Positions 2,194 through 31,551 of a stretch of 64,000 nt of DNA are shown piece by piece. The translations under genes were made by a program, and so were the position numbers. The DNA comes from an uncultured Alphaproteobacteria bacterium. Lineage in GTDB: Bacteria > Pseudomonadota > Alphaproteobacteria > Sphingomonadales > Sphingomonadaceae. Every line of letters begins with the position of its first letter. Within the stretch, counting starts at the first letter, position 1. The notes beneath the pieces were generated by a model. That model did not search any database, was not told the origin of the DNA, and was given only the letters and a program-made list of their open reading frames with translations. The stretch lies in NCBI GenBank assembly GCA_963802055.1, contig CAWDHC010000005.1:859168-923167 (forward strand), read 5' to 3'.

Positions 2194-2203
2194 GGAGGGG
2201 CTT

Positions 2204-3049
2204 TTGCTGATTGCACAAATCACCGATATTCATTTGGGGTTCGATCCCGGCAATCCGGCGGAGTTCAACCGAAAACGTCTGGACCAAGTCCTGCGCCATA
2301 TTGAAGATGGGCCGAACAAACCGGATTTACTGTTAGCGACGGGCGATCTCGTTGATCTAGGCGATATTGATAGTTACCGCCGTTTGGAAAGCGCATTTAG
2401 CATGTGCAAATTCCCAGTCCATATGTGCCTTGGCAATCATGACGACCGCGCGAATTTCATAACCCACTTTCCTGACGTGCGGGTGGCAGATGGATTTGTG
2501 CAATATGCAATTGAGCTCGATGGCCTGCGGCTACTCATGCTCGATACTCTGGAGGAGGGGCGCCATGGAGGAGCATTTTGTTCGGTGCGGGCAAACTGGC
2601 TGCGACAGGAGCTATCGAAGGATCAGGCCACACCGACCATTATCGTGATGCACCACCCCCCCGTTGAGGTGGGCATCGATTGGATGAACACCGACCCCAG
2701 CGAGCCTTGGGTGAGCAATTTTTCGGACGCAATTGCCGGAGCCAGCAATATTAAAGGCATATTATGCGGGCATGTGCACAGGGCGATCGCCGCCCCTTGG
2801 CGCGGAACAGCCGTTGCCGTATGCGCGTCCACTGCGCCGCAAGTCACGCTTGATCTGCGCCCTATCGACCTTGACCACCCCGACAATCGCCCGATGATCA
2901 TCGCTGATCCGCCAGCTTATGCGCTGCATTTCTGGAATGGACGCGAACTCGTCACCCATTTTCAAACAGCAGACCAGCATGTCATGCTGGCGAAACTGGA
3001 CGACAATCTTATGCCCTTGGTAAATCAGCTGCGCGCCGAACGACCTTGA
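2204..3049 (+). CDS. Metallophosphoesterase, CpdA/Icc-like cyclic-nucleotide phosphodiesterase
   Basis: Motifs TDIH, GDLVD, GNHD, HHPP, GHVH. Start moved to TTG 2204, 6 nt after GAGGAG (2192-2197); the ORF-track extension to 2033 overlaps the upstream gene. Confidence 0.85.
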   Translation: MLIAQITDIHLGFDPGNPAEFNRKRLDQVLRHIEDGPNKPDLLLATGDLVDLGDIDSYRRLESAFSMCKFPVHMCLGNHDDRANFITHFPDVRVADGFVQYAIELDGLRLLMLDTLEEGRHGGAFCSVRANWLRQELSKDQATPTIIVMHHPPVEVGIDWMNTDPSEPWVSNFSDAIAGASNIKGILCGHVHRAIAAPWRGTAVAVCASTAPQVTLDLRPIDLDHPDNRPMIIADPPAYALHFWNGRELVTHFQTADQHVMLAKLDDNLMPLVNQLRAERP

Positions 3050-3061
3050 TAGGTTTAGACC

Positions 3062-10944: not shown

Positions 10945-10946
10945 AG

Positions 10947-12332
10947 TTACCTCAGTGACCGAATTGAGCGGGAAGCTGCGCCTAATGCGCTGCGGAAATC
11001 ATCAGGACGATAGCCATTAGGATCGCGCACCGCATCATAAGCTTGTTGGACATTAACCCGGATGCCCGCTGCGGCACCTTGCGTGACCGTACCAGAGCGG
11101 ACGAGCGCACTCAGCAACGTATCCACCGCCATCACCGCCTGTACCGAGCCTTCATAATCGGTGAAGCGGGCGGAAATGGCGTTGCCGGATATCGTCTCGA
11201 TAATGGCAAAGGCTTGAGAGCTGCCGAAGCTGCCGGAGGAAAATGCGTTGGCGAGATTGTCAGATGCACTTGCCAGCTTGCGGGCAGCAGCAACAGCCGA
11301 GCCACGATCTAACGCGAGCGCTGCGTGGAAATTGCGGCTGGCGCTTTCAAACTGCCCTGCTGATTCCGGCGCGACAACGCGGGCTGCTGCCGAAAGCATG
11401 ATGATATTCTCATCGTTGAAGGGCGGCATGCCCTCTGGAATGGGCCGGCCAGGATTGCCCACGCCGGTTTTTACCGCTTCTGCCTGATCGTAAATTCGGC
11501 GGTGACAGCTATGGCAGTCGAAGAAGTAAAATTCAGGGAATACACCTTCTGTTCCGCGCCCAGGGATGGCGTATAATTCGAGCGCCCGCTTCAGCGACAA
11601 TGCCTGACCAATGGCCCATAATTGCACGTTATCACTGCGGCGTTTTCGGGCAACATAATCGCCGTCTTCATCATGATGTTGTTGCAATGTCGAGAATAGA
11701 TCTAGCTCAAACGAAATACGCGGATGTCCTGCTGCCATGATCCGGTGGTTAACGAACTGGCCGGGGCGGTCGCTGCCGAAATGGCAATCCAGACAGACGG
11801 CAGCGCGGGTCTTTGGATTGTCGAGCGGGACCATGCCTCGGGCGACATTGGCGGCATGTGAATTGCCCACCGCATAATGGCTGGCAATCCAACCCGCTGC
11901 GCCGCCATGGCAGGATTTGCAACCAACGCCGTCGTTAAGCTGTTTGCCGTTCGCTCCGGGGTCCGCATGGCAGCCAAGGCACATAGGTGCAGAAGTGGCG
12001 CTGCCAATGCCTAATACACGCGCTATTTGGGCACTACGTTTGCTTGAGAGAACAGAGAAGGCCTGACTATGCCGCCCAGCGGGGGAAGATGGCTCTTGCC
12101 AACGCAGCAATTCATCTTGGCGAACCACCTCGCCATCTGCCTCAAACCGGCCGTGACAGGTCGAGCCCGCGCAAGAGGCAACACCGAGATGTTGATTGCC
12201 ACCTGCATCGGCAAATGCCGGGGGCAAAATGGCGAAGGCCATTGCCACGAGGGCGCAAAGACACAATAGCAATTGGGCGGCCAGCTTGCCGCTGCTTCTT
12301 GCAAAATTCTGGCTGTGACTATCGTCAGCCAT
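10947..12332 (-). CDS. Exported cytochrome c554-like multiheme protein (4 CxxCH + 1 CX4CH)
   Basis: Signal peptide ending AFA. Motifs CAGSTCH, CLGCH, CKSCH, CLDCH, CHSCH, then a helical C-terminal half. Confidence 0.8.
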   Translation of the reverse strand: MADDSHSQNFARSSGKLAAQLLLCLCALVAMAFAILPPAFADAGGNQHLGVASCAGSTCHGRFEADGEVVRQDELLRWQEPSSPAGRHSQAFSVLSSKRSAQIARVLGIGSATSAPMCLGCHADPGANGKQLNDGVGCKSCHGGAAGWIASHYAVGNSHAANVARGMVPLDNPKTRAAVCLDCHFGSDRPGQFVNHRIMAAGHPRISFELDLFSTLQQHHDEDGDYVARKRRSDNVQLWAIGQALSLKRALELYAIPGRGTEGVFPEFYFFDCHSCHRRIYDQAEAVKTGVGNPGRPIPEGMPPFNDENIIMLSAAARVVAPESAGQFESASRNFHAALALDRGSAVAAARKLASASDNLANAFSSGSFGSSQAFAIIETISGNAISARFTDYEGSVQAVMAVDTLLSALVRSGTVTQGAAAGIRVNVQQAYDAVRDPNGYRPDDFRSALGAASRSIRSLR

Positions 12333-17013: not shown

Positions 17014-20000
17014 TCAATTGCTCGGTTTGGCGGCCTCCGAGCAGCTGTCATCCCCGGCAGGACAGGCTGCGGGCCACAGATCATCATTGCCCGTTCCGGT
17101 CACTGGTTCATCAATTAAGGGCGGATATCCGTATGTTTCAAATTCTTTGAGTTCGAGTAGAGTGCTGGCCAGCAAAAGGCCAAAGCCCTCATCTATCACG
17201 ATAGGGTCGTTGATACGGTCTTCGCTGATTGTGGGCAGGTTTTCTGTTTGGCTGCATGCACTAATCGCTATAATCTGACATCCATTGATGGTTGACGCTG
17301 CCGCAAAGCCGCTTGCGGTCTGGCTTAGGACGTCGTTGATATATACCAGCGGAATAGTTTGTAAGCCCGTCACAAACCCTGTCGCGCCGCTGACCTGTGC
17401 ATTGATTGCAATCAAGCCGTCGGGATTGGCAATGGTCAAATTCAGACTATTTGCGGTGATGCCGCGGCGGTCCCTGTACAATATGCTGGTGCCGCTATTT
17501 TGAACGAGAATGTTGTTTCTGGCGGAAATATTCACATTATCCGCGCTTATCACGCCAGCGGTGTTGATATTGCCATCATTCGCATCCAGCCGTGCGTTGA
17601 TGGCCGAAACACTTGAAAGTGACGCGAGATCGGTCATGGCGGACTGGGTGGCCGCGGTGATGTCATTCGCATTAAGCGTCAATGCTCCTGCCAGAGCGCC
17701 CGCTGGGCCGCTTAGCGCCAATGAGCCTTGGCCAGCGATGATTTCCAGCGAATTGTCCGCTGTAATATTTACCGCATTCGCATTTCCAAAACCGCTAAAG
17801 GCAGCGGCCCCAATAACCCGAACCGACCCGGGCGTGGTGACGCTGAACGAACCATTGGCCGCTATGTTACCAGCCGCGTTATTGGCCCTGCTGGTGATGG
17901 CAAATCCATCCAAAATCACGCTGGGAACGACGGGTGGCGCAGGCGGAACCGCAGCGGTATTTAACCAGTTGATCGCGATATCGTTTGCGAAAATGCGGGA
18001 CAATTCTGTTGCCGATAGGCTATATCCAGTGCTGACCCCGCCGCCACCTATGGTCATTTGCTCACCGGCATTGTTGCTTAAATTGACCAATTGCGTTGTA
18101 CCAATGCTGCCCAACTGCGCGGTAGGACTGATCTGAATATTGCCAGACCGTACCGATATTACCGGCGCCACAGCATTGGCCAAAAAGCTCGCCAACCCGC
18201 CAGACGTCACGTCAAGTGATGTCCCGCCTGTTGCGATTCCAGCCAGACTGGCATTTTGGCCTGCTTGGACAATGATCTGGTTTCCATTTGTAGACGCCAA
18301 ATTAACATTGCCGCCTGCATCGAAGTTTAACAATCCGGCCGCGCTTGCGTTGCCAGCTACGATATTGCCATTTGCCGCAATTACGTTCACGCTGCCGCCT
18401 GCTGCAGCGAGATTGCCAGTGGTAATGTCGTTAACCGCGGTCAGGCTAATATTACCCAGATTTGACGAGACGAGCCCGCCGCTTATATTTCCTGCGGTAG
18501 CGGTTACGCTGATCGACTGCGCTGCACTCAGATTAGTGAATGAGGCATTCACACCTTGCAACGCTATCGACAATGCGCTGCTGCTATTTCCCAAAATGAC
18601 ATCGCCTCCAGCATTTAACTGAACGGCAGTACCCGGCACCGCAATGCTGCCAAAATTAATCCCGCCGCCTGCATTGACCTGAAACGGAACAGCCGCGCCT
18701 TGGGTGTAGGAGAGCACGGAAATGTTTCCGGGAAGCGCATAAATTGGCTCAGCCGCTCCGCCTATCCCCGCAACAGTTGTAAGTTGCCCGCCAGTATTAA
18801 TCGCGCCGGCCGCGATATTGGTGCCTATAGTGATGCCAATATCATTGGCAGAGGTCAGATTGCCATTGCCCGTCAGGCTGCCGTTTGCTGCATCAATCTG
18901 CAACAAATTGCTGGATAGCGATGAATTGCGAAGGGAAACATCGCCTTCAACGCTGGTCAAATTGATTTGATTTATTCCGGCGATGGACGAAGCCGAACCG
19001 AGCGGATCGCCGATTATTAAATCCCGCCGGGCGGTGGCCAAAAAGATATTCGCATTGACATTGCCGCCTTCGATATAGGCCTGCACCGGAACGCCAGATC
19101 GCCCAAGCGTATCAACCCGCTGCCCTATTTCGACACGGTTAGTGGCGGCTAATCTGCCCAAACAGAGATTGCCTTGCAAGCATTGTCCGCCGAGCAGGCC
19201 AAAGTCGTTGGACTGGCCCGTGGCAGCGATTGTCGCATTTGACGGCGCATTGTTAATATCCGCCTGTATTGAGCCTGCAGAAATCGTTCCGCCCAGCCCG
19301 TCAATCGCATCGGCAGTCAGGGTAACGGATGAGTTGGAGCCATCCAAATTGCCGCGCGTCACGATCGAAGCAATTGGTGTTACCAGCGCAGACGATAATT
19401 GCGCCGACAGACCGCCCGCAGCAAGCACCATTTTGGCCGCATTGTTAAACGGGCTTGCGGGATTTAGCGGAACAGTCGGATTGAAAGCCGATATTACAAC
19501 AGCGCCTGCCTGAATTATTATATCATCGCCGGTAGCAAATCCCACCAGATCATTTGCACGCACATTAGCGGCGCTGGTAACAACGACATTGCCCCCGGCA
19601 AAAGCAACCACATCGCCCACAGAAGTAATGGTGCCGGTCAGTGCCGCATGATATAATGGGTCATAGAAAATACCCAAGCCTGCGATATTCTGATAGCCAG
19701 CGTCGACCCGGATTTGGAGCGGGGGATTACCAACGCCGCTTGCAGTTAGTACAGCATTGTTTAGTGTTGCATTTAGCCGTGCGGCCAAGCTGATGTGATC
19801 GACACCTGTGATATCATTGATGCTGATATTGCCGGTTGTCTGGACATATATTTCACTGCCTGACCGAATTCTCGAACCGGGCTGGCTTACAAAATCACCC
19901 CCCGCATTGGCATAAATTGATCCGGCAGAATCTATCGAAAACACTCCGCTATTGTTGCTGTGATTGACCATTATGGATTGGCTAGCCGTCAGGTTGGTGC

Positions 20001-21339
20001 CGCCGCCAACGACAAATTGCCCACTATCCTGGAAATTAAAACCAATATCTGCGGCGGTTAAATTGGCGCTGCCATCCACCCGCACTGCGCCACCATTGCC
20101 CGCCCCGATGTCAATCTGCTGGCCCGCATTAAGGGTCAGATTATAGCGATAACCTGTTGCACCGGTGCCCACCAACACATTAGCTGCTGCAGGCATTTCC
20201 GCATTAATGGAACCGCTAGCGGTTGCTCCGGTGTCGGATGTAAAAGAACCGCCGGTAAAGTTTATATCAGCGGTGATGCCGTTTGCAGGAGAAGGGTCGA
20301 CAGTCACTTGCGGGAAGGCCGCCGTGCCGCCGACCGCAACATTATGGCCCGCACTTAAGACAACTTCTCCGTTTGAGATGATGGCAGTGGATGCTGCGCG
20401 GTATCCGGCAGTGCCGCCCAGCAGCATTGTGATGGCATTATTCTTAGGCACAGCGACCATGTAGATGGCGCGTGCGTCCGGGTTGCCAGCCACGGGTGTT
20501 GAGGCGTCTCCCGTCGTGGTGCCGGTATGGACAACGCCATTGGCGTCATCTGTCCCGGTTTTGATCGAAATTCCAAATAGACCATTGCTGATCTGCAACT
20601 GCCCCTGTTCACCCCCAATATAGCCCACAGACCCGTCAACATCGACCGTGCCGCTTTGCACTACGCTAGGCGCGAACATGGCTAAATAGCTGCTGGTGCT
20701 CAGTTCATTTAGCGCAGTAACTTGTGCGCCATTTTCCACAACTATGCTAGAATTGGGGGTGATCGCACCCGTGAAATTGATGCTGCCACTGTTTCCGACG
20801 AACAGGTCGGCATTGGCGATGGCGCTGGTTGAAAGTAATAAACTACCGACATCAAAAGTCGAAGTGCTGCCCAATATGATCCCGCCCGGCGTGTAGAACC
20901 AGATGCTGCCAGCGCGTTGGGTCACGGCAGAGCCAGCCACTGAAACTACATTTCCGTCAAAACGAACCGGCCGATTGTTCACCGGATTGCTCGCGTCATC
21001 TATCGGCAAAATCCGGTTTAATACTGCAAAATCAACGACAACGCTGCCAGTCGAACGAAAGGTCGCGGTTGTGTTTTGCGCCTGGAACAAAATCTCGCCT
21101 GTTCCGCTAGTGTCATTTGGTTGCCAGTTAATCACCGCAGTTGGCGTGGAGATCGATATCTCGGTCGTATTTGGGCCAGTGGAAAAAGAAACTCCGCCTG
21201 CCTCAATAGTCGGCGTTCCTTGAAAAGACTGGGCATTGGCATCTGTCGCTGCTGCGCCAATGGTAAGCGCGATTAAGCATGCGCCAGCCAGCAAGCTACT
21301 AGATGATTTTCGAAACTGTATCCGGTCAAATTTTGACAT
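17014..21339 (-). CDS. Large exoprotein, TpsA / filamentous-hemagglutinin-like beta-helix protein (1441 aa)
   Basis: Signal peptide ending ANA, secretion-domain-like AVINW, long G/A/N/S/T-rich beta-helix repeats. ATG 21339 overlaps the TpsB stop (TAATG). Confidence 0.8.
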   Translation of the reverse strand: MSKFDRIQFRKSSSSLLAGACLIALTIGAAATDANAQSFQGTPTIEAGGVSFSTGPNTTEISISTPTAVINWQPNDTSGTGEILFQAQNTTATFRSTGSVVVDFAVLNRILPIDDASNPVNNRPVRFDGNVVSVAGSAVTQRAGSIWFYTPGGIILGSTSTFDVGSLLLSTSAIANADLFVGNSGSINFTGAITPNSSIVVENGAQVTALNELSTSSYLAMFAPSVVQSGTVDVDGSVGYIGGEQGQLQISNGLFGISIKTGTDDANGVVHTGTTTGDASTPVAGNPDARAIYMVAVPKNNAITMLLGGTAGYRAASTAIISNGEVVLSAGHNVAVGGTAAFPQVTVDPSPANGITADINFTGGSFTSDTGATASGSINAEMPAAANVLVGTGATGYRYNLTLNAGQQIDIGAGNGGAVRVDGSANLTAADIGFNFQDSGQFVVGGGTNLTASQSIMVNHSNNSGVFSIDSAGSIYANAGGDFVSQPGSRIRSGSEIYVQTTGNISINDITGVDHISLAARLNATLNNAVLTASGVGNPPLQIRVDAGYQNIAGLGIFYDPLYHAALTGTITSVGDVVAFAGGNVVVTSAANVRANDLVGFATGDDIIIQAGAVVISAFNPTVPLNPASPFNNAAKMVLAAGGLSAQLSSALVTPIASIVTRGNLDGSNSSVTLTADAIDGLGGTISAGSIQADINNAPSNATIAATGQSNDFGLLGGQCLQGNLCLGRLAATNRVEIGQRVDTLGRSGVPVQAYIEGGNVNANIFLATARRDLIIGDPLGSASSIAGINQINLTSVEGDVSLRNSSLSSNLLQIDAANGSLTGNGNLTSANDIGITIGTNIAAGAINTGGQLTTVAGIGGAAEPIYALPGNISVLSYTQGAAVPFQVNAGGGINFGSIAVPGTAVQLNAGGDVILGNSSSALSIALQGVNASFTNLSAAQSISVTATAGNISGGLVSSNLGNISLTAVNDITTGNLAAAGGSVNVIAANGNIVAGNASAAGLLNFDAGGNVNLASTNGNQIIVQAGQNASLAGIATGGTSLDVTSGGLASFLANAVAPVISVRSGNIQISPTAQLGSIGTTQLVNLSNNAGEQMTIGGGGVSTGYSLSATELSRIFANDIAINWLNTAAVPPAPPVVPSVILDGFAITSRANNAAGNIAANGSFSVTTPGSVRVIGAAAFSGFGNANAVNITADNSLEIIAGQGSLALSGPAGALAGALTLNANDITAATQSAMTDLASLSSVSAINARLDANDGNINTAGVISADNVNISARNNILVQNSGTSILYRDRRGITANSLNLTIANPDGLIAINAQVSGATGFVTGLQTIPLVYINDVLSQTASGFAAASTINGCQIIAISACSQTENLPTISEDRINDPIVIDEGFGLLLASTLLELKEFETYGYPPLIDEPVTGTGNDDLWPAACPAGDDSCSEAAKPSN

Positions 21340-23123
21340 TATAGGCTCCACGGGAACAACTTCACGGTCAATGACATCAGAAAACGGACATCGCCTTTGC
21401 GGCTCAACAGTCCTGCCGTTTTTAAAGGAGCTGCGGCGGTCAAATCAAGCCGGGCACTTTTGCCCAAAGCTGCCCGAACGCCGCCGCCCAAAGAATATAG
21501 ATGGGTTCTGTTGCGCGCATAAGGCGCGGTTAAAATATCCTTGTTCCAAACCTTTGCAGCATCAAAAAAAGTAAAGGGTTGCACGGCCAGATCCTTGATG
21601 GATTTGGGTTGCAGAGAAAATAAGCGCAGTTCAGCTTGCGAACCCAAGCCGCTATCACCCAGCAACACGCCCGCATCATAACCGCGGCCGACCGTGTAAT
21701 TCCCCGCACTGAACTCTTCGTAACTGACCAGCGATTTTGGCGCAAATTGCCCGCGCATTGACAGCGACAAAGCAACATCGGGTATCGGCCTATATTCGAT
21801 ATAGGCTTGGCCGCGCGCCACAAAGCTGGAAGTATCGGCCTCTATTCGGCTAAGCGGCGTAAATGGTGGCAGGCAGCGCAAAAAGCCCGCGCCGCAGGCT
21901 GGGCTTGCACCAAGTCCGCTTATGCCTTGCCGCAATTCTGTTGACCCCCCAAAGCGCCAATGGGGTTCCGCCCCAGTATAGCCCCTTGCACTGGAAAGGC
22001 TTGCAGGATCTCTGACATCAAAATCAACGCGGCCATAAGCAATGCGTAGCTGATCTCTGGTCAAAGGCGTCGTGCCAAATCGTGTTTCTTGGTCAATCCA
22101 GTCGAATCCAGCCGATACGACCAGATTTTTTGATTGGCTGCGGATGACGGGATAGCTTGCCGACAGCGACGCGATTAGAGTTTTTGATGTGATCGGTGCG
22201 GGCGGATTGAGCGTCGGTGAAGACCATGCGTGCGTGACATCTGCCGACACACGAAGTCCGTTGTTACCAATCAGAAAGCTATGTCCCGCCTGCAAGATGG
22301 TTTGCTCTTTGCTATCCACTGTGTTGAAAATACTCAGCGTGGTTTGATCACCAAGGCCGGTTATACCATTTATTCTCGCTCCCAGAAGGCCGCCAAAGCG
22401 CCCGGTGTCGACGGATCCCAAATTCTGAACATTGGCTTCCAGTTCAAATCGCCGATAGCTAACCGCTACCTCGCCAATCACTTCGCCAGGGACGGTTCCG
22501 GCTGGTCGCAAGGTCATCCGCACATCATAACCCGGAATGTCTCGGGCCAGCAGCATGGCCCGCTCGGCCTCGACAAAGTTGAAAATGTTTTTGTTGGTTA
22601 AAGATTCTAGAAATGCAACCAACCGTCCTTCCGACGGCCCAGCATCGCCGCGCACCTGCACCTTTACAAGCCTTGCCAGCAATACATCGAATTTCAACGT
22701 GCCGCCCGGCGCAATGCGCTGCGGCACCACTTGCACCGCCGCCAGATAGCCGGCACGCCGCAATGTCGTCGCGGCACGGTCTCGTATTTCGCATAGCTGG
22801 GCAATCGGCAGGGTTTTTCCGGCCTCATCACGCCAGCTGCTATCCAAGGATGCAGGAGCAATGCCGGAAAGCCCCGAAAATTCAACGCTTGAAAATGATA
22901 TCTGCACATTGGCATAAGCCGGATCGGCGAACGGGCAGGGTGCTCGTTCGATATCGCCATCGACTTTCAGGCGGCTGCGCTGCACTTCGACGTCAGGCAG
23001 TTCTTTGCTTTCCAGCTCGTCTCTTGTCGGTGCAATGTTGCTTTGTGCGGCAACTGCAGTCGGCATGAAAAAACTGGCACCAGCCAACGCAACATATGCG
23101 AATCGAAAAGCGTTGTCTGGCAT
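21339..23123 (-). CDS. ShlB/FhaC/HecB-family TpsB outer-membrane transporter
   Basis: Signal peptide, POTRA-like region, N.GS..TG motif (NLGSVDTG), GRGY loop motif, terminal beta-strand VRFLMSLTVKLF. Confidence 0.88.
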   Translation of the reverse strand: MPDNAFRFAYVALAGASFFMPTAVAAQSNIAPTRDELESKELPDVEVQRSRLKVDGDIERAPCPFADPAYANVQISFSSVEFSGLSGIAPASLDSSWRDEAGKTLPIAQLCEIRDRAATTLRRAGYLAAVQVVPQRIAPGGTLKFDVLLARLVKVQVRGDAGPSEGRLVAFLESLTNKNIFNFVEAERAMLLARDIPGYDVRMTLRPAGTVPGEVIGEVAVSYRRFELEANVQNLGSVDTGRFGGLLGARINGITGLGDQTTLSIFNTVDSKEQTILQAGHSFLIGNNGLRVSADVTHAWSSPTLNPPAPITSKTLIASLSASYPVIRSQSKNLVVSAGFDWIDQETRFGTTPLTRDQLRIAYGRVDFDVRDPASLSSARGYTGAEPHWRFGGSTELRQGISGLGASPACGAGFLRCLPPFTPLSRIEADTSSFVARGQAYIEYRPIPDVALSLSMRGQFAPKSLVSYEEFSAGNYTVGRGYDAGVLLGDSGLGSQAELRLFSLQPKSIKDLAVQPFTFFDAAKVWNKDILTAPYARNRTHLYSLGGGVRAALGKSARLDLTAAAPLKTAGLLSRKGDVRFLMSLTVKLFPWSL

Positions 23124-23362
23124 TTATTCCCCCCGTATTTCGCCGATCATATACGCAGAATTAATGCGACAGGATCAACGAACGCGTTGCTTCGTCATTA
23201 TGAAAGCGCCTATTCAACGCTTCTGAAAACCACCTTGCGACCGAGGCACCGAAACACAGTTGGCAATTATTTTGCCCTTCACTGGATTCGGTCGCCAATT
23301 TCTACGTCAAAATAAGGATTTGTGCAATTGTTTCGCCCACAGACGAACCGTCTCTAATCTCA

Positions 23363-24121
23363 CTAAGGGGAGGGCGGTGATTGCACAAATGTTTCGGCCA
23401 GCAACTCGCTTTGCGATTGGCATCCTTTTGCCAGCAAGCCCCCTGCCAATATGTCAAGCTGTTCGCTGCCGGAGACTTGCATGCGCACCAAATCTACTGA
23501 AATCAGATCTTTGCTTCCGGCAGGGCCAATCAGATAACGACCACCATCAACAGGGGCAATCTCGCTGGGCCATGCGGCGGTAGATTGCCCTTTGCGGAAG
23601 CTAACCGAAGCCTTTGCACCAGATTTCGCATCTTGCGCCGAAAGGTTAAAAATCGCGGAACTATCACTGCGCCAAAATTGAAGCTGGGAAAAATCCGCGA
23701 CGCAGGATGTCCCGCTTTTGGAAATATCGACAAACCATAAATTAGGGCTTCGCGCTTTAGCACCCGAAGATGACGAGCCACGAACGGCTCCTGTGCGTGC
23801 GCGCCGCACGTTGCTGGTCTTGGCGATTTTCGCTAGGCTGCTGCTGGCAACTTTTCCTGCGCTCACGGCGCTGGACGTACTGAAGCTGCCCGGCCCGCGC
23901 AAAATCCGGGTTCCGCGTTCATCAAGCACCGTCAATGTTTCGCCCGCGTTCAACTTAATGGTGCCGTTAACCGGAAGCTTTGTGCCCGGCTTATAACTTT
24001 GCCCAGCCGGACCGCTATATTTGATCACGATTGGCCCAGCGCTAGCCGCCATGGTTAAGCCAAATGCCGGCAATGCAAACCCTAGCGCCACAAACGCCAA
24101 TCTATTTTTAATCCAAGCCAT
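23363..24121 (-). CDS. Exported hypothetical protein (FecR-like N-terminal beta domain suspected)
   Basis: Signal peptide ending ASA, then IKLNAGETLTVLDERGTRILRGPG. ATG 24121 has a well-spaced AGGA RBS and overlaps the cyclase 3' end. Confidence 0.7.
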   Translation of the reverse strand: MAWIKNRLAFVALGFALPAFGLTMAASAGPIVIKYSGPAGQSYKPGTKLPVNGTIKLNAGETLTVLDERGTRILRGPGSFSTSSAVSAGKVASSSLAKIAKTSNVRRARTGAVRGSSSSGAKARSPNLWFVDISKSGTSCVADFSQLQFWRSDSSAIFNLSAQDAKSGAKASVSFRKGQSTAAWPSEIAPVDGGRYLIGPAGSKDLISVDLVRMQVSGSEQLDILAGGLLAKGCQSQSELLAETFVQSPPSP

Positions 24122-26147
24122 ACACATATCCTACCTCTGAATTTTGAACTCTGTAAAGCAAATTTTCGGCTGCGGCATCGTCTGGATGGGCCAGCGACAA
24201 TGCCTTCAAATCCGCGATAGCCTGAGCATAATCGGTATTTAGCAACGCTATGGCTGCAGCCAATTGATCGCGCTGTTGTGCGGGAATATCGGGACATGGT
24301 TCAAATATATCCACGGGCAAGGCCCGCCCGCGCAAACGAACACGGCCCAATGGACGCCACCAATCGAGGCCTGATCGCTCGGCGGCTTCGCGGCTCGCTA
24401 AGACTCCGGTATTGGTCTGCTTATTGGCGCTTTCCAGCCGCGATGCGGTGTTCATGCTATCACCCAGTGCGGTATATTGAATGCGGCCTTCGCCGCCGAA
24501 ATTGCCAATAACCGCCTCCCCAAAATGCAGGCCGACGCGGGTTTTGCCAATAGGGGGCAGGCCATCGGGAACAGCATTGCGAAATACTTCGCCCGCTTGC
24601 CATAATTCATAAGCGGCCTTTGCTGCCCGCTCGCCATCGTCGGGGTAAGAAATCGGCGCACCCCAAAAAGAGACGGTGGCATCGCCCACGAATTTGTCGA
24701 TCGTCCCTCCATGTTTTAAAATGACCGAACACAGCATATCCAGATAGCGGTTCAGCAAGGTCGCCACCATTTCCGGTTCTATCTGATGCGATAATTTGGT
24801 GAAGCCTTCGAGATCACTAAAAACAACAAAAATTTCGCGCTTCTCGCCGTGCAATGCGAGCCGGTCTGGCTCGTCCAATATTTGCTGGGCAATGTCTCTG
24901 GGTAAATATTTGCCCAAGGCCGATTGGGCAAAGCGCCGCTGATGAGAACTGACCTCGCGCACCGCCATGCTAATCGCAGAAAAGGCGATGATCCACCCTA
25001 TCAGCCAGCCGAAAGCCGACATATGTTGCGTATCCAACCCCTGCGCATGCGCAACAATTGGCAATCCTCCGAAAAAAATAATCTGAACCAATACCGAGAC
25101 TGCAACGCGGTAGCCGCCATTTTGCAGGCTGGTCAGCCCCCCCGCAACCACAACCAATATCGCCAACGCCCATTTCGCCCAAGGCGGCGTAGCGGGCAAT
25201 TTTTTGCCATCCAGCAATTGTGCGAGCATATGGGCATGCACATCGAGGCCGATCATCGGCGCTTGTGTATTTAACCGCAGGGGCGTTTCAAATTCGTCGA
25301 CATCAATAATATCGCCGCCAATCAGAACATATTTGCCGCGTATTTGTTCCGCTAGGGCAGGGGCCAGATCCGGGTCCGCAAGCAAATCAATCGGCAAGGA
25401 TGCAAAAACCGGGCGGTCTTCAAATTTAGGTTCGCGAAAGGCAATCGACCCTTGGTAATTTAGCATGTGCGTCGATGCATTTTTGTCCACTGAATCCCGC
25501 ATTGATCGGGCGAGGATTGGCGGCAATCCCTCTTGGATATGCGGCCAACTGCGCACAACATTGTCGATATCTGTTTCGATACGGATACTGGCTGGGCGGG
25601 CATTGCTGCCGTCCAGAGATTTCATGAATTCATCCAAGAACGCTTGCTGGCGCGGCTGGATATTATTCTGGTTGGTGGCGGCGTTCGCATAAGCCAGATA
25701 GGTGGGTGTTTTCATCGCGCGCATCGCGGCTTGCAACTGGGCGTCTTCGTCCTGTGGCTGATCGATCAATATGTCGATGCCGATCGCAGCGGCCTCCATC
25801 GTGTCAATATTGGCCAATGCTTTTGCCAATGTCGCGCGGTCCAGCGGCGAGCGCTTTTTTGTGTCGATCAAAGTGTCGTCATTGTAAACAATTTTGACAA
25901 TCCTGCTGTCCTGATCGACCAAGGGCGCGAGATAGCTGGTGCGCAAATCATATAAAGCGCGCTCGGCATTGCTGATCAGCATGATATCCCAGCTAAATCG
26001 GGAAATCAGCACAGCCAGAACCAGCAAGACAGACATTAGCAAAAGCCGCAGCCAACCCAGCTCATTTCGCACACGCAGAATTTTGCGCATGGCTGCTGAA
26101 CTTGCTGTTGCAGCTACTGGGCCATCAACGCGGTCTTGCTGTTGCAC
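24108..26147 (-). CDS. CHASE2-domain class III adenylate cyclase
   Basis: N-terminal TM, periplasmic CHASE2-like region, three TMs, then FSDLEGFT, DKFVGD, RVGLHFG, YTALGDSMNTASRLE. Lys + Thr at the specificity positions indicates ATP use. Start could be 26090. Confidence 0.9.
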   Translation of the reverse strand: MQQQDRVDGPVAATASSAAMRKILRVRNELGWLRLLLMSVLLVLAVLISRFSWDIMLISNAERALYDLRTSYLAPLVDQDSRIVKIVYNDDTLIDTKKRSPLDRATLAKALANIDTMEAAAIGIDILIDQPQDEDAQLQAAMRAMKTPTYLAYANAATNQNNIQPRQQAFLDEFMKSLDGSNARPASIRIETDIDNVVRSWPHIQEGLPPILARSMRDSVDKNASTHMLNYQGSIAFREPKFEDRPVFASLPIDLLADPDLAPALAEQIRGKYVLIGGDIIDVDEFETPLRLNTQAPMIGLDVHAHMLAQLLDGKKLPATPPWAKWALAILVVVAGGLTSLQNGGYRVAVSVLVQIIFFGGLPIVAHAQGLDTQHMSAFGWLIGWIIAFSAISMAVREVSSHQRRFAQSALGKYLPRDIAQQILDEPDRLALHGEKREIFVVFSDLEGFTKLSHQIEPEMVATLLNRYLDMLCSVILKHGGTIDKFVGDATVSFWGAPISYPDDGERAAKAAYELWQAGEVFRNAVPDGLPPIGKTRVGLHFGEAVIGNFGGEGRIQYTALGDSMNTASRLESANKQTNTGVLASREAAERSGLDWWRPLGRVRLRGRALPVDIFEPCPDIPAQQRDQLAAAIALLNTDYAQAIADLKALSLAHPDDAAAENLLYRVQNSEVGYVYGLD

Positions 26148-26174
26148 GGTTTGTTTTGCAGATTCAGCCAGCGC

Positions 26175-29100
26175 TTAAATTCCGCTTAAAAATGGCCGTG
26201 CGCCATCGCCGATGATTGCGAAGCCTGACCAATAATAGGGGTGCGATGTCGCCGCATCGTCCATCAAGCCAATTTGCGCCTTCTGCATAGCTTCAGCCAC
26301 AGACAGTCCGCGTGCTTGAAACAAGCCGGAAATAAGCTGCGCAGTCGCGTTATATTCATCAGGCGCAGGCCAATGGCTCGCAATCACACTGCGGCCGCCT
26401 GCGCCTATAAATGCCCGCACCAGGCCGTCCAGAGAAGTGCCGCCACCGCTGCCCAGTCCGGCTTCGCGGGTTGCAGCAGAGCTGGCCTGTCCGGCGGTAT
26501 CACAGGCGGATAGGATCACGACATCAGCATCCATTTTTAGGTCAAATATTTCCGAAAAGGATAGCAAGCCATCAGAATCAGCGCCGCCAATGGAGGTGAG
26601 CAACGATGGCCGCGCAGGGCAGCCGGCGCGCGGCGCGGTTACAAAGCCATGGGTCGCAAAATGCACGATGCGGAAATTGTTCAAATCAGCTTTTGACTTA
26701 ATGGCGGCATCGGTGAACTTTTCACCGGTCAGAACACTGGCTCCCCCAGACCCGACAAAATTTGCCGCGCTGTTGAGCTCGGCGGGGTCAATAGGCCGGT
26801 TCCAATTGGCCAATGGCCAGTTGCAATCGAGCGGATCGAAAGCGGATGCTTTGCTTTGGGCGGGTACCACTTGCGCAAATACGGGGGAGTTATTGCCATA
26901 GCCTAGATATTGCTTTTGTGCTGATGATTTGGGGGCAAGCCGTGCTTCGCGGAAACTGCGTGCAGAAATGGCCGTGCTCACCGCTGTTCTGCGGCCAAGC
27001 CACTCCACACCGCGAAAATCAAACTCGTCTGCCGAAGGATCCTGTATGCGGGCGGCATAGGCATCTGCACTTGCTTGGTCGGCAACAAGCAAGTTGACAG
27101 GAAGCTGGAGCATCGCGCCATCGGGTTCAAAAATAAGATGTTTTGTTTGAGAAAGCGGTCCGGAAACTGGACTAAATAGATCAAGATATAATTTGCGGGC
27201 GAGTGGGACATCAAAGGCGTAAGTGGTTGCCTGATCATTTTCCCATGTTGAAATTGTCTCGCGCAAATTGGCGACTTCGGTTGCAAGCTGTGACGCGGAA
27301 ATTGGCAAGGCGTAACCCGTTGCCATTTGAGCATCAACATACATGCCATATACGGCATCACCGGCGACCAGCATTTTGAAATAGGCTTCTCCCGGTTTCA
27401 AACTGCCGCGCAAATCGGCTAATGAAAGGGTCTTTTTTGATACTGCGCGAAATTGCGGATAGGCCGCCAACGCCACCAGAGTGTCGGTTTGTTGCTGGGC
27501 CAGAAGATTAAGATCATCTTGTTGAATAACAACCAACGGCGCGTCGCTTTTGTTAACCTGCGCCAATTTGGTGAGGCGGGCAAGTTCTATGCGGCCGCGT
27601 TCAATATCACGCGCCAATGTGACCGATTGACGAAACAGCCGCGCAGCATCGCCGTCTCCGGCGCTTAGCTCGCGCGATAATAACTCCACCGAGTCCGCCG
27701 CCCCGGGTCTCAACAGGGCTTGGGCGGCAAGGAACATATCATCCGCATAGGCCGAATTTTGCGGCATGCCCTCGCTGAGTAAATCGAAATAGGGCTTAAT
27801 CTGATTTCCTATGCCAGCAATACTGCTCTGGCTTGCCGTGGTGCTGGTGATGACTTTTTTGAACATATCCAGTGCCGCGACTTTTTCACCGCGCCGGGCG
27901 AGGAAAGAAGCATAACGCGCGCGAACGCTATTGACGGCATTGGTTTCCGGATAGGTTGTTTCCAGCATCTCAAGCGCCGATTGCATGAGCCCGCGTGCGG
28001 ATGCAAAATCTCCGTTCGTTTCATCGGCCAGGGCCATTTCCGTCATGATCTGCGCACGCAACCGGGCGATGGAGGTGACGCGGCCATCGCGAATGGCAAT
28101 CGCATCGCGCAAAGCTTGCTCCATATAGCGCCGCGCCGCCTTGCTATCCCCCTGCAGGCGAAACAGGGTTCCGCGCAATTGTGTCGCCTGCGCATCGATA
28201 ATCGCCGCCCGCTCATCTGCGGTCAGCTTGGTTTCCTGCTTGACGCCAAGATTAGACGCGGCCGGGCTGCTGGCGTTAAATTCCGCAGCCACTTGTTCGC
28301 CGATTTCGGCGCCCTGTCCATTGTCTATACTGGCTTGATCGACGAGACCGACGGGGCGTTCCAATATCGCAAGCGCCGGGCCCAAATCTCCTTTATTCAT
28401 CAAATGCATTGCTTCAAAATTGCGCCGCAAACGAAGCTGCACGCGGTCCGTCACGGGGATTTTCGACGCCTCCGCAAACAACGCCTCTGCCTGATCGAAT
28501 TCGCCAAGATTAGACAATTGTAATGCGCGGTTGATGACATATTCATGCAAGCGCTGCTGCCGTTGGACCGCTGTTTCATCCGAAGCGCTCATTTGCTTGT
28601 CAGCTGTTTGATGCTGTAATGTATCAAATTGATGCTGTAATGTATCAAAAAACTGTGCGGCTTCGGTATAATTCCCGCTGTTGTTGCGCCGATATCCCTC
28701 GGCCAGCGCGGCTTGCGCATTTAGCGTTGCCGCCTGCGTCCGTGCAAAGGCGGCATCATCGCCGTTTCCGGTGGTCGCAATATCCAGTTTGCCCGGCAGC
28801 AACTTATCGGCAATCACCGTGCGAAGCCCAAGCTGCAATGCACTGTCATAAGCGCTGAGGCCTTGCGCAAAATAACTATTCTTGCCTGCTTGATGCCGAT
28901 AGATGACATAACCGCCGTCGCAAGTTTTTTTCGACACTTGGCTTAGGTCCGTAATGGCCGCTTCCACCCATTCACCGCAATTTGAAGAGCGCCCGCGCGC
29001 ACGGTTAAGGCGTTCGTCAAAAGACGATGTACCATCACGCAGAGCAAAAATTTGGCCGATGGGCTGCTCTGCGTCCCGGCACACCAGCGCCCATGAACGG

Positions 29101-29279
29101 TCAAACATTCCTTCAAAGGCAAGATCACTGGATTTGGCCTGCGCCTGACACAAGGCACCGCCGCCGCTACCAATGCGAAAACTATCCATCAAACTGGGCT
29201 GTGATGCCTGCGCAGATGCGCCCTGAGGGGCCAATAGCCCCCCGACAATGGCCAAGCACATTAAGGTTATATTTCGCAC
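26175..29279 (-). CDS. Exported TPR-like + CHAT (caspase/HetF-like) cysteine protease
   Basis: Signal peptide (MRNITLMCLAIVGGLLAPQGASA), helical repeats, IFEPDG..L, VHFATHG (catalytic His), VILSACDT (catalytic Cys), HPYYWSGF. Confidence 0.9.
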   Translation of the reverse strand: MRNITLMCLAIVGGLLAPQGASAQASQPSLMDSFRIGSGGGALCQAQAKSSDLAFEGMFDRSWALVCRDAEQPIGQIFALRDGTSSFDERLNRARGRSSNCGEWVEAAITDLSQVSKKTCDGGYVIYRHQAGKNSYFAQGLSAYDSALQLGLRTVIADKLLPGKLDIATTGNGDDAAFARTQAATLNAQAALAEGYRRNNSGNYTEAAQFFDTLQHQFDTLQHQTADKQMSASDETAVQRQQRLHEYVINRALQLSNLGEFDQAEALFAEASKIPVTDRVQLRLRRNFEAMHLMNKGDLGPALAILERPVGLVDQASIDNGQGAEIGEQVAAEFNASSPAASNLGVKQETKLTADERAAIIDAQATQLRGTLFRLQGDSKAARRYMEQALRDAIAIRDGRVTSIARLRAQIMTEMALADETNGDFASARGLMQSALEMLETTYPETNAVNSVRARYASFLARRGEKVAALDMFKKVITSTTASQSSIAGIGNQIKPYFDLLSEGMPQNSAYADDMFLAAQALLRPGAADSVELLSRELSAGDGDAARLFRQSVTLARDIERGRIELARLTKLAQVNKSDAPLVVIQQDDLNLLAQQQTDTLVALAAYPQFRAVSKKTLSLADLRGSLKPGEAYFKMLVAGDAVYGMYVDAQMATGYALPISASQLATEVANLRETISTWENDQATTYAFDVPLARKLYLDLFSPVSGPLSQTKHLIFEPDGAMLQLPVNLLVADQASADAYAARIQDPSADEFDFRGVEWLGRRTAVSTAISARSFREARLAPKSSAQKQYLGYGNNSPVFAQVVPAQSKASAFDPLDCNWPLANWNRPIDPAELNSAANFVGSGGASVLTGEKFTDAAIKSKADLNNFRIVHFATHGFVTAPRAGCPARPSLLTSIGGADSDGLLSFSEIFDLKMDADVVILSACDTAGQASSAATREAGLGSGGGTSLDGLVRAFIGAGGRSVIASHWPAPDEYNATAQLISGLFQARGLSVAEAMQKAQIGLMDDAATSHPYYWSGFAIIGDGARPFLSGI
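28608..28649. repeat. Perfect in-frame 21-bp tandem duplication (FDTLQHQ x2) in the CHAT gene
   Basis: ttgatgctgtaatgtatcaaa at 28608-28628 and 28629-28649. Confidence 0.9.
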
Positions 29280-29541: not shown

Positions 29542-30591
29542 ATGACAAAAATTGATTCCGATACCGCATGGGCTGCTTTTCTGCGACGGGACCGCTCGTT
29601 TGACGGGCAGTTTGTCGGCGCGGTGAAAACGACATGGATTTATTGCAAGCCAAGCTGCCCGGTGCGCCACCCGCTGCAAAAGAACGTCGTGTTTTATGCG
29701 TCAAATGAGGAGGCCAAGGCGGCAGGGTTTCGCGCCTGTATGCGCTGCCGCCCTGATGATGTGGCACGAGACGAGATTGCGGTGGCGAAGGCGACGGCGT
29801 TGTTATCAGGCGACGATCCACCCGCTTTGGCGGCGCTCGCATCATCAGTGGGCTATGCACCGCACCATTTTCACCGGCTGTTCAAGCGGCATTTGGGGGT
29901 GACGCCAGCAGCCTATGCGCGCGGGCTTCGGGCCGAGCGGGCGGCCAAGGCACTTGCATCGGGCGGGCGCATCACCGATGCCATCTATGATGCAGGCTAT
30001 AATACGCCCAGCAGATTTTATGCCGATATGAAGGGAGCATTGGGCATGACACCGAACGCATGGAAAAATGGCGGCGCAGGGGCGGTCATCCGTTTTGCGG
30101 TGGTGGATACCTCGTTGGGGCGGATGCTGGTTGCGGCGACCGACAAGGGGATATGCCGTCTCTCCTTTGGTGAAGACGAAACCGCACTCAAACAGCGCTT
30201 TCCAGCTGCGACGATTGCGCCGGGCGGGGCGGCGATGGACGATTTGGTCACAGGTGCGATTGCGGCAGTGGAGCGGCCATATGCTATGCCAGATTTGCCG
30301 TTGGATGTGGCGGGGACCGAATTTCAACAAGCGATCTGGGCTGAGCTGCGCCGTATTCCGGTGGGCGAAACGCGCAGTTATGCCGATATTGCCGCTGCTA
30401 TTGGCAAGCCTAAAGCGGTTCGCGCGGCGGGAAGCGCGAATGGTGCGAACAATGTGGCCGTGCTCATTCCCTGCCACCGGGTGGTGCGCAGCGATGGCGC
30501 GCTGGGCGGCTATGCTTATGGTTTGGCAATTAAGCGGGAATTGTTGCGGCGCGAACAGATTGGCGTGCCCGCTGATGGCCAGTTGCTATAG
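29542..30591 (+). CDS. ada: Bifunctional Ada regulator / O6-methylguanine-DNA methyltransferase
   Basis: Zn motif CKPSC..CMRC, AraC HTH (YAPHHFHRLFKR), active site IPCHRVV. Confidence 0.93.
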   Translation: MTKIDSDTAWAAFLRRDRSFDGQFVGAVKTTWIYCKPSCPVRHPLQKNVVFYASNEEAKAAGFRACMRCRPDDVARDEIAVAKATALLSGDDPPALAALASSVGYAPHHFHRLFKRHLGVTPAAYARGLRAERAAKALASGGRITDAIYDAGYNTPSRFYADMKGALGMTPNAWKNGGAGAVIRFAVVDTSLGRMLVAATDKGICRLSFGEDETALKQRFPAATIAPGGAAMDDLVTGAIAAVERPYAMPDLPLDVAGTEFQQAIWAELRRIPVGETRSYADIAAAIGKPKAVRAAGSANGANNVAVLIPCHRVVRSDGALGGYAYGLAIKRELLRREQIGVPADGQLL

Positions 30592-30597
30592 AGTATC

Positions 30598-31551
30598 GTG
30601 AATATGATCGATAAGGGGGCAAGCAACATGGCATATACCAGCCGCGTTTCAGTGTTAAAGGCTGTCTGGGCGCATCCGTTATTTTTGCTGCTGGCGGGGC
30701 TTGGCGTTATCATCTGCTGCATTGCGCTGGCGGGCGCTGTGTTTCAGGTATTGGTTCCAGCACCAGTGCAAAGCGATGCGCTTAATCTGTCTTATTCATG
30801 CTTGGCGGCGGGGCTCAGCCTTTGGGGCTATTGGCTGTTCACGCGCATTGTGGAGGGAGCGCCTTTCGCAGATTTTGCCTTGGCGGGCAGCGGGCGGGAA
30901 TTTCTGTTCGGTGCGGGTATTGGCGGCGGTGTTATGGCCATTGTCGTCGGTATCATGGCGCTATTTGGCGGCTATGTCATAACGGGGCATAATGGCGCGG
31001 AAATTTTGGTGGGCGTGCTGTCGGTCGCAATTATCAGCGGAATCGTGGAAGAGATTTTGTTTCGCGGCATCATTTTTCGTTTCTGTGAGCAATGGCTGGG
31101 TAGCGCGGCGGCATTGTCGATCTCGGCTGTGTTATTTGGCGCGGCACATTTGAACAATCCCAACTCCAGCTGGCTGGCGGCGGCGGCTATTGCGATAGAA
31201 GCAGGCATTATGCTGGGCGCAATTTATATGCTCACACGGCGGCTATGGGCGGCCATTGGCCTGCACATGGCGTGGAACAGCGTGCAGGGCGGATTATTTG
31301 GAATTGCGGTATCGGGAACAGACGTGCCAGGCCTATTGATAAGCGAAACGCGCGGGAATGAGCTTCTGACCGGCGGGGCATTTGGTGCGGAGGCTTCTTT
31401 GCCCGCTATGGTTTTTTGCACGCTGGTTGGCGGATATTTCCTGTTCCGCGCATGGCAAAAAGGGCGATTTATAGGGGCCAGCTGGTACCGGCTCAAAACG
31501 GGGCAGGCCGTGCCCGTTGTTGAACCGGATATGGCATCGGATATTGGTTAA
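30598..31551 (+). CDS. CPBP (CAAX/Abi) family intramembrane metalloprotease
   Basis: Multiple TMs; EEILFRG, FGAAH, HMAWN motifs. Confidence 0.9.
   Translation: MNMIDKGASNMAYTSRVSVLKAVWAHPLFLLLAGLGVIICCIALAGAVFQVLVPAPVQSDALNLSYSCLAAGLSLWGYWLFTRIVEGAPFADFALAGSGREFLFGAGIGGGVMAIVVGIMALFGGYVITGHNGAEILVGVLSVAIISGIVEEILFRGIIFRFCEQWLGSAAALSISAVLFGAAHLNNPNSSWLAAAAIAIEAGIMLGAIYMLTRRLWAAIGLHMAWNSVQGGLFGIAVSGTDVPGLLISETRGNELLTGGAFGAEASLPAMVFCTLVGGYFLFRAWQKGRFIGASWYRLKTGQAVPVVEPDMASDIG

Follow-up and report, generated by a model that had tools for sequence, protein, structure and literature searches.

In Sinorhizobium meliloti, the CHASE2 cyclases CyaK, CyaD1 and CyaD2 require the outer-membrane protein NsrA, and a surface signal is relayed to cyclic AMP (cAMP) (PMC7529298, PMC13001267). 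What CHASE2 domains sense is largely unknown; the rhizobial NsrA/CyaK pair is the sole worked example, and its mechanism is open there too. Here, a cluster of five genes is described that encodes an exported TPR-CHAT protease, a CHASE2 cyclase, a small exported protein of 254 residues (p254) and the TpsB and TpsA proteins of a two-partner secretion (TPS) system. The cluster occupies positions 17014-29279 on the minus strand of a 64,000-nt stretch (the window: contig CAWDHC010000005.1 of assembly GCA_963802055.1, positions 859,168 to 923,167) from an uncultured member of the Sphingomonadaceae, which homologues place in the Sphingomonadales, close to Sphingorhabdus-like metagenome-assembled genomes (MAGs). 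The association was found in about 100 sampled loci from several alphaproteobacterial orders and in three gene orders; because the five genes stay together in this way, they very probably represent one undescribed envelope-signalling device, the mechanism of which is inferred.

The likeness to the rhizobial system, which had been named as precedent in an earlier note on this DNA and proved to be a real one, concerns both the cyclase and its surroundings. The cyclase architecture (transmembrane (TM) segment, CHASE2, three TM segments, class III cyclase domain) is the same as that of CyaK, the genes of cyclase and partner lie side by side, and TPRs as well as a beta-barrel of the outer membrane belong to either set. 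Next to cyaK, however, the preceding gene encodes FecR, TPR and beta-barrel parts in one polypeptide (NsrA), whereas in the window these roles are spread over several proteins: p254 does not resemble FecR in spite of its same genomic position, the barrel is the fibre-exporting TpsB, and the TPRs form one polypeptide with a caspase-like protease. Moreover, no protease is known from the rhizobial CyaK/NsrA pathway, and the window cyclase shares only about 27-35% identity with CyaK (31-32% over a full-length alignment with the Niveispirillum orthologue).

A second related logic is that of the LapG/LapD-CdrA/CdrB system of Pseudomonas aeruginosa, in which the TPS adhesin CdrA is released from the cells by periplasmic LapG, which cleaves it within its Cys-bearing C-terminal region (PMC4694147). 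Both systems combine a TpsB-exported TpsA fibre with a periplasmic cysteine protease and an inner-membrane protein of cyclic-nucleotide signalling. In contrast to LapG (DUF920/C93), the window protease belongs to another family, CHAT; LapD is a receptor of cyclic di-GMP that acts inside-out, whereas the window encodes a cyclase that is predicted to make cAMP, with an outside-in direction to be expected; the window TpsA lacks a TAAG/PAAG site, and the window genes, unlike those of the Lap system, are clustered. Membership in the Lap-type adhesin-release systems was therefore rejected on the grounds of the CHAT protease, the cyclase as membrane protein and the missing TAAG/PAAG site, and the likeness is one of logic only.

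In the Burkholderia 'BiofilmReg' operon, a CHASE2 histidine kinase is encoded next to a periplasmic LysM-FecR protein (PMC5192318). As in the window, the gene beside that of the CHASE2 sensor thus provides a small exported partner of its own; the output of BiofilmReg is, however, a histidine kinase/response regulator, its partner consists of LysM and FecR, and neither a TPS system nor a protease is present. With the classical TPS systems (FhaB/FhaC, HMW1, HxuA/HxuB, ShlA/ShlB), the window pair has in common a TpsB of POTRA and Omp85 type, a TpsA whose N-terminal TPS domain leads into a beta-helix, and a gene overlap. Unlike in these systems, the TPS domain has diverged beyond the reach of the Pfam model, the NPNL/NPNGI motifs are replaced, there is no toxin or haem-binding cargo, and a CHAT protease and a cyclase are linked.

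In the open-access literature, no connection of CHAT to either CHASE2 or two-partner secretion was found, in agreement with the suggestion that the mechanism is undescribed; the only overlap consists of caspase-CHASE2 fusion proteins reported in cyanobacteria (PMC2853523). The claim that clusters of CHAT, CHASE2 and hemagglutinin genes are common in cyanobacteria could not be confirmed: plasmid pCC7120alpha of Nostoc PCC 7120 carries TpsA-CHAT only, with no CHASE2 within 9 kb. All domain families of the cluster except p254 are known, as are CHASE2 cyclases with an envelope partner; the p254 family is uncharacterised.

Co-inheritance and modularity of the cluster genes

The five genes are intact open reading frames on the minus strand and follow each other in the order TPR-CHAT protease (26175-29279, 1034 aa), CHASE2 cyclase (24108-26147, 679 aa in the longest reading frame), p254 (23363-24127, 254 aa), TpsB (21339-23123, 594 aa) and TpsA (17014-21351, 1445 aa). 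The CHAT and cyclase genes are spaced by 27 nt, the cyclase and p254 genes overlap by 20 nt (14 nt if counted from the p254 ATG; the database copy of p254 starts at Met3 and has 252 aa), and tpsB and tpsA overlap by 13 nt. This co-orientation, spacing and tpsB/tpsA overlap were confirmed as given in the earlier note, which had not mentioned the non-coding gap of 239 nt (23124-23362) between p254 and tpsB. A gap of approximately 100-350 nt is found at this place in most orthologous loci and may contain a second promoter. Promoter- and terminator-like consensus matches in the gap were no better than in shuffled sequence, an Rfam search revealed no RNA family, and a conserved CRP/Clr-like palindrome was looked for across the orthologous loci and not found.

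Conservation of the neighbourhood had been named beforehand as the point on which the proposal of a common system could fail, and it was found to hold. By means of a p254 alignment, 80 species-level sphingomonad loci were gathered (a single-sequence scan for loci gave no match); the cyclase and p254 genes were adjacent in 80/80. In the 70 sphingomonad loci with sufficient flanking sequence to score the presence of CHAT and TPS genes, CHAT and TpsB were both present in 57 and both absent in 13, with not a single locus containing one alone; tpsA was located directly after tpsB in 53/53 loci, and the five-gene order and strand were identical in all 57 species loci that have these genes. Loci with cyclase and p254 only (the two-gene state) fall into at least seven separate clades of a neighbour-joining cyclase tree, corresponding to at least seven joint losses or gains. 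The nearest relatives of the window (L001, L005 and L006) are in this two-gene state and have retained the downstream synteny with the gene of a thiamine pyrophosphate (TPP) enzyme. CHAT is positioned upstream and tpsBA downstream of the core pair, so that each switch between the states takes two events; the perfect coupling across such two-event switches speaks for a mutual dependence of CHAT and the TPS system. The wider locus is chromosomal and likewise conserved in its synteny with the TPP-enzyme and aldehyde-dehydrogenase genes. The related species offer a natural "deletion series" of the cluster genes.

Outside this set, two further gene orders were found besides that of the window (order 1: CHAT-cyclase-p254-TpsB-TpsA). 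In Niveispirillum and relatives, the order is TpsB-TpsA-CHAT-p226-cyclase; on the Niveispirillum plasmid, TpsB is followed by a TpsA with TPS and MBG_2 domains, a TPR-CHAT protein, a 226-aa protein and the CHASE2 cyclase, the 226-aa protein being a homologue of p254 (hhalign 99%, 1.8e-18). In other sphingomonad loci, the order is TpsA(MBG_2)-CHAT-cyclase-p254, with two systems present in one MAG. A scan with the p254 subfamily of Niveispirillum yielded 22 loci in Azospirillaceae, Rhizomicrobium/Micropepsales and others, and CHAT was encoded directly before the p254-like gene in 19 of the 22. Among the 80 loci of related CHASE2 cyclases that were listed (a sample of matches, not a census), a gene of the p254 family immediately followed the cyclase in 59, immediately preceded it in three and lay nearby in five; it was absent in seven distant taxa. 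With 57 of 70 sphingomonad loci and two other orders elsewhere, the arrangement is far beyond chance.

The cluster, however, is not invariably complete. Seven Azospirillaceae loci (L100-L106: Azospirillum sp. RU38E, Niveispirillum sp. SYP-B3756 and Oleisolibacter albus, with two such loci in two of the genomes) contain TPS, CHAT and p254-like genes without a cyclase within 10 kb, and their p254-like proteins have kept the G-A-[VA]-R motif and the Cys pair described below. No part other than p254 recurs in all of the cyclase-only, five-gene and cyclase-less configurations; p254 is therefore the probable adaptor by which the module of protease and fibre is connected to the CHASE2 sensor. This modularity, and the role of p254 instead of TpsA as the part common to all p254-containing configurations, had been missed in the earlier note. 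The CHAT and TpsB proteins of the window are nearer to those of a cyclase-less locus of Sphingomonas parapaucimobilis than to those of Niveispirillum, and the window and Niveispirillum cyclases align over their full length (31-32% identity); from this thin sampling there are hints that different CHAT-TPS modules have been joined to the same sensor pair. As a separate observation, a cyclase and p254 pair also occurs in some Gammaproteobacteria (Competibacter/Contendobacter MAGs; L120, L124 and L125), where the p254-like gene adjoins the cyclase on the opposite strand.

Predicted properties of the five proteins

All four envelope partners of the cyclase carry signal sequences, and the cyclase itself has its CHASE2 domain between TM segments. 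In the CHAT gene product (Pfam CHAT, E=1.4e-52), an N-terminal signal peptide (residues ~1-24) is followed by an N-terminal and TPR-like region with weak TPR matches (residues ~30-690) and by the CHAT domain (residues 692-1025, window 26205-27206). The catalytic dyad is formed by His877 and Cys926, and the surrounding HFATHG and LSACDTA sequences are invariant in 57/57 orthologues. A signal peptide or lipobox was present in all TPS-linked CHAT homologues elsewhere, and no match was obtained for the protein against solved structures. The protein is an exported TPR-CHAT cysteine protease (clan CD, caspase-like) with intact catalytic residues.

The cyclase (Pfam CHASE2 1e-28, Guanylate_cyc 2e-13) has its probable true start at Met20 (26090). 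According to the hydropathy analysis, a first TM segment (residues 28-59) and three later ones (323-341, 346-368 and 376-396) are present, and from their positions the CHASE2 domain (residues 43-337, window 25137-26021) is placed in the periplasm and the class IIIb cyclase domain (residues 436-581, window 24405-24842) in the cytoplasm; the protein ends with a short, TPR-like tail. The best solved relatives of the cyclase domain are P. aeruginosa CyaB (3r5g, 5e-29) and Spirulina CyaC. The catalytic set is complete, with two metal-binding aspartates (D445, D489), the specificity pair Lys485/Thr559 and the transition-state residues Asn566 and Arg570, all of which can be aligned with P. aeruginosa CyaB, without variation in 80/80 orthologues. 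Therefore an active class IIIb adenylate cyclase is predicted, its presumed product being cAMP because of the Lys/Thr pair. The same domain, although its specificity residues are those of adenylate cyclases, scores 1.2e-31 on the PycC model of PADLOC, a similarity that reflects the shared cyclase fold; programs that search for defence systems could mislabel the gene. Membership in Pycsar was rejected in spite of this match, because of these residues and because an adjacent cyclic-nucleotide (cNMP)-binding TM/TIR effector is missing.

A feedback through a cAMP receptor was considered and rejected, as a Crp/Fnr gene adjoins the cluster in only a few Sphingobium loci and in one metagenomic locus and the p254-tpsB gap has no conserved CRP- or Clr-type palindrome. 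The cNMP-binding or Crp/Fnr-type genes concerned (L086/L087: 12741-13496, minus strand; L082: 5954-6592, plus strand) belong to one metagenomic Rhodospirillales-like lineage and a few Sphingobium plasmids. They possibly encode the cognate cAMP receptor; the neighbourhood is not conserved, and such a gene is absent near the window cluster.

For p254, no family was found in Pfam (up to E=10), NCBIfam or PADLOC, and Pfam likewise gave none for 26 diverse members; the family comprises 167 close homologues and 1610 cluster representatives at E<=1e-3. In the AlphaFold2 (AF2) model (pLDDT, the predicted local distance difference test score, 75.8), an N-terminal signal peptide precedes a small beta domain (residues 33-83), a linker of about 30 residues that is predicted to be disordered (residues 89-120), and a confidently modelled beta-sandwich with two helices (residues 130-250). 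Within the linker lies an R-x-G-A-V-R motif (RARTGAVRG, residues 109-117, window 23777-23803), of which G113, A114 and R116 are present in 81/81 sequences; the pair Cys142/Cys236 is invariant. Foldseek searches with the model yielded generic Ig/FN3 matches only, all above 1e-3. A FecR-like nature of p254 was considered and rejected on the basis of these generic Foldseek hits, the lack of any Pfam match at E=10, the lack of a FecR match in 26 diverse members and the lack of an hhalign match to NsrA.

TpsB matches Pfam ShlB (1.5e-15, above the cut-off) and Omp85 (1.4e-4), with POTRA_2 (3e-4, 21 bits) just below its cut-off of 24 bits. It has a signal peptide, a POTRA domain, a barrel of the 16-strand family and the loop-6 G-R-G-Y motif ('TVGRGYDAG' in the translation), and is an Omp85-type outer-membrane transporter of two-partner secretion. 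For TpsA, the label given in the earlier note found no support in Pfam (including the TPS model) or NCBIfam, where nothing matched even at E=10; it was upheld by a profile of 27 orthologous N-termini, which in the PDB retrieved the TPS domains of HxuA (4i84, 3.5e-7) and HMW1 (2odl, 1.7e-6). Based on these matches and on the overlap with tpsB, TpsA is a genuine, divergent TPS protein (TPS domain at residues ~40-340, window 20332-21234), predicted to form a secreted beta-helical surface fibre. The features of type Vb secretion are present with the barrel and POTRA domain of TpsB, the N-terminal TPS domain of TpsA and the adjacency of the genes, from which export is predicted.

The body of TpsA is a beta-helix rich in Gly, Ala, Ser and Asn; the orthologues vary in length from 1400 to 2700+ aa. 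The canonical NPNL/NPNGI motifs are absent from the window TpsA, as are the VENN/ELYN pre-toxin and TAAG/PAAG motifs. Membership in CdiBAI was accordingly rejected: VENN/ELYN are absent, the C-terminus is conserved and not variable, and there is no immunity gene (the next gene encodes the TPP enzyme). Three close Cys pairs are found (724/730, 1358/1366 and 1430/1437). The C-terminal region of about 330 aa is conserved in an alignment of 26 orthologues; its AF2 model, calculated from a shallow alignment (a word-index search with the low-complexity C-terminus gave nine matches), shows a confident beta-helix up to a conserved S-T-I-N-G-C...C cap. The following tail of about 75 aa (residues ~1369-1445, window 17017-17247) is predicted to be disordered (pLDDT <50 at residues 254-312 of the modelled segment and 46-53 over the last 20 residues) and contains the terminal Cys pair and a motif, PLIDEPVTGxGNDDLW, that is nearly invariant in the 26 orthologues (residues 1411-1426, window 17074-17121). 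The TpsAs of the Niveispirillum type likewise end with a Pro/Ala linker and a conserved terminal motif. The tail is a candidate for a periplasmic handle or cleavage target of the TPR-CHAT protease.

Proposed signal path and rival explanations

The reading preferred here, put forward tentatively and at somewhat less than even confidence, is that of a modular locus that leads from proteolysis in the envelope to cAMP, with two modules joined by p254. The core module would consist of the CHASE2 class IIIb cyclase and its dedicated periplasmic partner p254, converting a periplasmic cue into cytoplasmic cAMP; the accessory module would comprise the TpsB outer-membrane pore, the long beta-helical surface fibre TpsA and the exported TPR-CHAT protease. 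As the last part to exit, the tail of TpsA would remain on the periplasmic side of TpsB, where the TPR-CHAT protease could dock on it and cut in the periplasm, with the tail or p254 (or the two of them) as target. By this cut, p254 would be informed of whether the fibre is engaged, pulled or shed, and would in turn bind the CHASE2 domain via the invariant G-A-V-R linker motif and set the cyclase activity, so that cAMP changes in an outside-in manner. A candidate input (TPS fibre and protease), an adaptor (p254) and an output (cAMP) would then be encoded together in one compact and widely conserved locus, which provides a first context for the p254 family, for exported CHAT proteases (whose periplasmic roles are undescribed) and for the conserved C-terminal tails of TpsA. 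If the coupling is true, surface contact or adhesion would be linked to cAMP in environmental Alphaproteobacteria.

Of the cascade proposed in the earlier note, in which the exported protease cleaves TpsA or the small exported protein and CHASE2 reads the product, the co-conserved unit, the export signals and the intact catalytic residues stand, whereas several observations weigh against it and against the path outlined above. Cleavage, binding and cAMP output are all inferred, and the same applies to the flow from CHAT to CHASE2, to the question of who cuts whom and to the direction of the signal. In a comparison of alignment columns, none in p254 or the cyclase was kept in the five-gene loci and relaxed in at least four of the seven two-gene clades, bar one marginal Met of the cyclase, and a CHAT/TPS-specific interface footprint was thus not found in either protein. 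The core pair persists without CHAT and TPS in at least 13 loci, and the p254 motif is equally conserved there; the RARTGAVRG sequence was therefore rejected as a CHAT-specific cleavage site in its sole role. Conversely, CHAT-TPS triads without p254 or cyclase occur in other genomes. Furthermore, p254 does not resemble the FecR domain found in the known partner of CHASE2, the cluster lacks a consistently linked cAMP receptor gene across the loci, and the 239-nt gap between its two halves may imply separate transcripts.

Several of these observations would be accommodated by a regulated release of the adhesin, in which the TPR-CHAT protease clips the periplasmic tail of TpsA and sheds the fibre, and the cyclase would constitute, together with p254, a sensor in its own right that is just co-expressed or has an upstream role (in the latter variant, cAMP or p254 sets when the protease or the tpsBA genes act). 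This explanation, the main rival, is possible but lies on the unlikely side. It has a precedent in LapG/CdrA (PMC4694147) and agrees with the predicted disorder, Cys pairs and conserved motif of the TpsA tail, with the separate occurrence of CHAT-TPS triads without cyclase and of the core pair without the triad, with the missing interface footprint in p254 and the cyclase, with the separate intergenic region before tpsB and with the Crp/cNMP-binding gene beside some clusters. It does not account, however, for the position of CHAT, which is always directly beside the cyclase/p254 pair in three gene orders, and the persistence of the p254 family with CHAT-TPS in the absence of the cyclase argues for a link at the protein level over shared expression only. 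In addition, a conserved CRP/Clr-type site is missing before tpsB, CHAT is unrelated to LapG, and TpsA is devoid of the TAAG site.

Bordetella FhaB is processed by SphB1, CtpA and DegP, and a constitutive maturation or quality control could likewise be envisaged, with CHAT trimming a C-terminal pro-region of TpsA, p254 as chaperone or escort, and an indirect link to the cyclase. The strict co-inheritance of CHAT and TPS, the pro-domain-like organisation of the TpsA tail and the cyclase-less loci with TPS, CHAT and p254-like genes are consistent with such a role. It is nevertheless improbable: the constant presence of p254 beside this clade of cyclases, including at least 13 loci without TPS, and the translational proximity of CHAT to the cyclase (27 nt) instead of tpsBA would be unexplained, and p254 is absent from the triads embedded in type VI secretion system (T6SS) clusters that are described below.

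Far less probable still is a function in anti-phage defence or abortive infection, either by a Pycsar-like pyrimidine cyclase or by CHAT as effector, as in type III-E CRISPR. CHAT proteases are effectors in some defence systems, and the cyclase domain matches the PycC model (1.2e-31); PDB matches to adenylate cyclases are, however, as strong (5e-29), and the Lys485/Thr559 pair is the purine-specifying one of class IIIb adenylate cyclases. The cluster contains no gene for a cNMP-binding TM/TIR effector, PADLOC remained blank for CHAT, p254, TpsB and TpsA, the protease is exported and not cytoplasmic, and the conserved chromosomal synteny (TPP-enzyme, aldehyde-dehydrogenase) is not that of a defence island. 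Chance adjacency of unrelated genes, for which the internal 239-nt gap and nothing else speaks, is refuted for all practical purposes by the association in about 100 sampled loci of several alphaproteobacterial orders and in three gene orders.

A broader extension of the proteolysis-to-cAMP reading, which is doubtful at present, regards the CHAT-TpsB-TpsA triad as a general, previously unrecognised surface sensor, in which CHAT would cut the periplasmic tail upon engagement of the fibre and the outputs would be lineage-specific. In S. parapaucimobilis (plasmid; L083/L115), a TpsB-TpsA-CHAT triad is located amid a T6SS cluster between tssH and tssK, with genes for tagF, a PP2C and a Ser/Thr kinase downstream; on a plasmid of Caballeronia grimmiae (L092), the triad lies between tssJ and tssA. 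Such embedded triads may feed a T6SS trigger: the output would then be the firing of the T6SS in these two organisms, compared with cAMP via p254 and CHASE2 in the window. If true, this would be a new way of signalling across the envelope, in which the regulated cleavage of a type Vb substrate by a protease serves as the signal, and the coupling in the window locus would give a hint of a related trigger for some T6SS clusters.

Genomic surroundings

On the 3' side of the cluster, the genes of the TPP enzyme (67 nt from tpsA), an aldehyde dehydrogenase and a glutamate dehydrogenase follow on the same strand; they are unrelated to the cluster. Upstream, and likewise unrelated, a divergent plus-strand flank (29542-31551) encodes an Ada-type methyltransferase/regulator and a CPBP (CAAX) intramembrane protease. 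The latter was considered as a sixth member and rejected, given that a CAAX homologue was found in 0/80 sphingomonad loci; a CPBP gene is also positioned 3' of CHAT in S. parapaucimobilis, and this neighbourhood is probably due to chance. Beyond the Ada and CPBP genes, a polysaccharide export cluster of the Wzz/tyrosine-kinase type extends on the plus strand from 32512 to ~45000. At the other end of the window (388-12332), multihaem cytochrome genes follow one another; their products include Cytochrome_C7/c3 and MtrC-like domains, a 1331-aa LVIVD-repeat/cytochrome protein and proteins resembling HbpS and c554. Together they suggest an extracellular or periplasmic electron transfer that is unusual in a sphingomonad.

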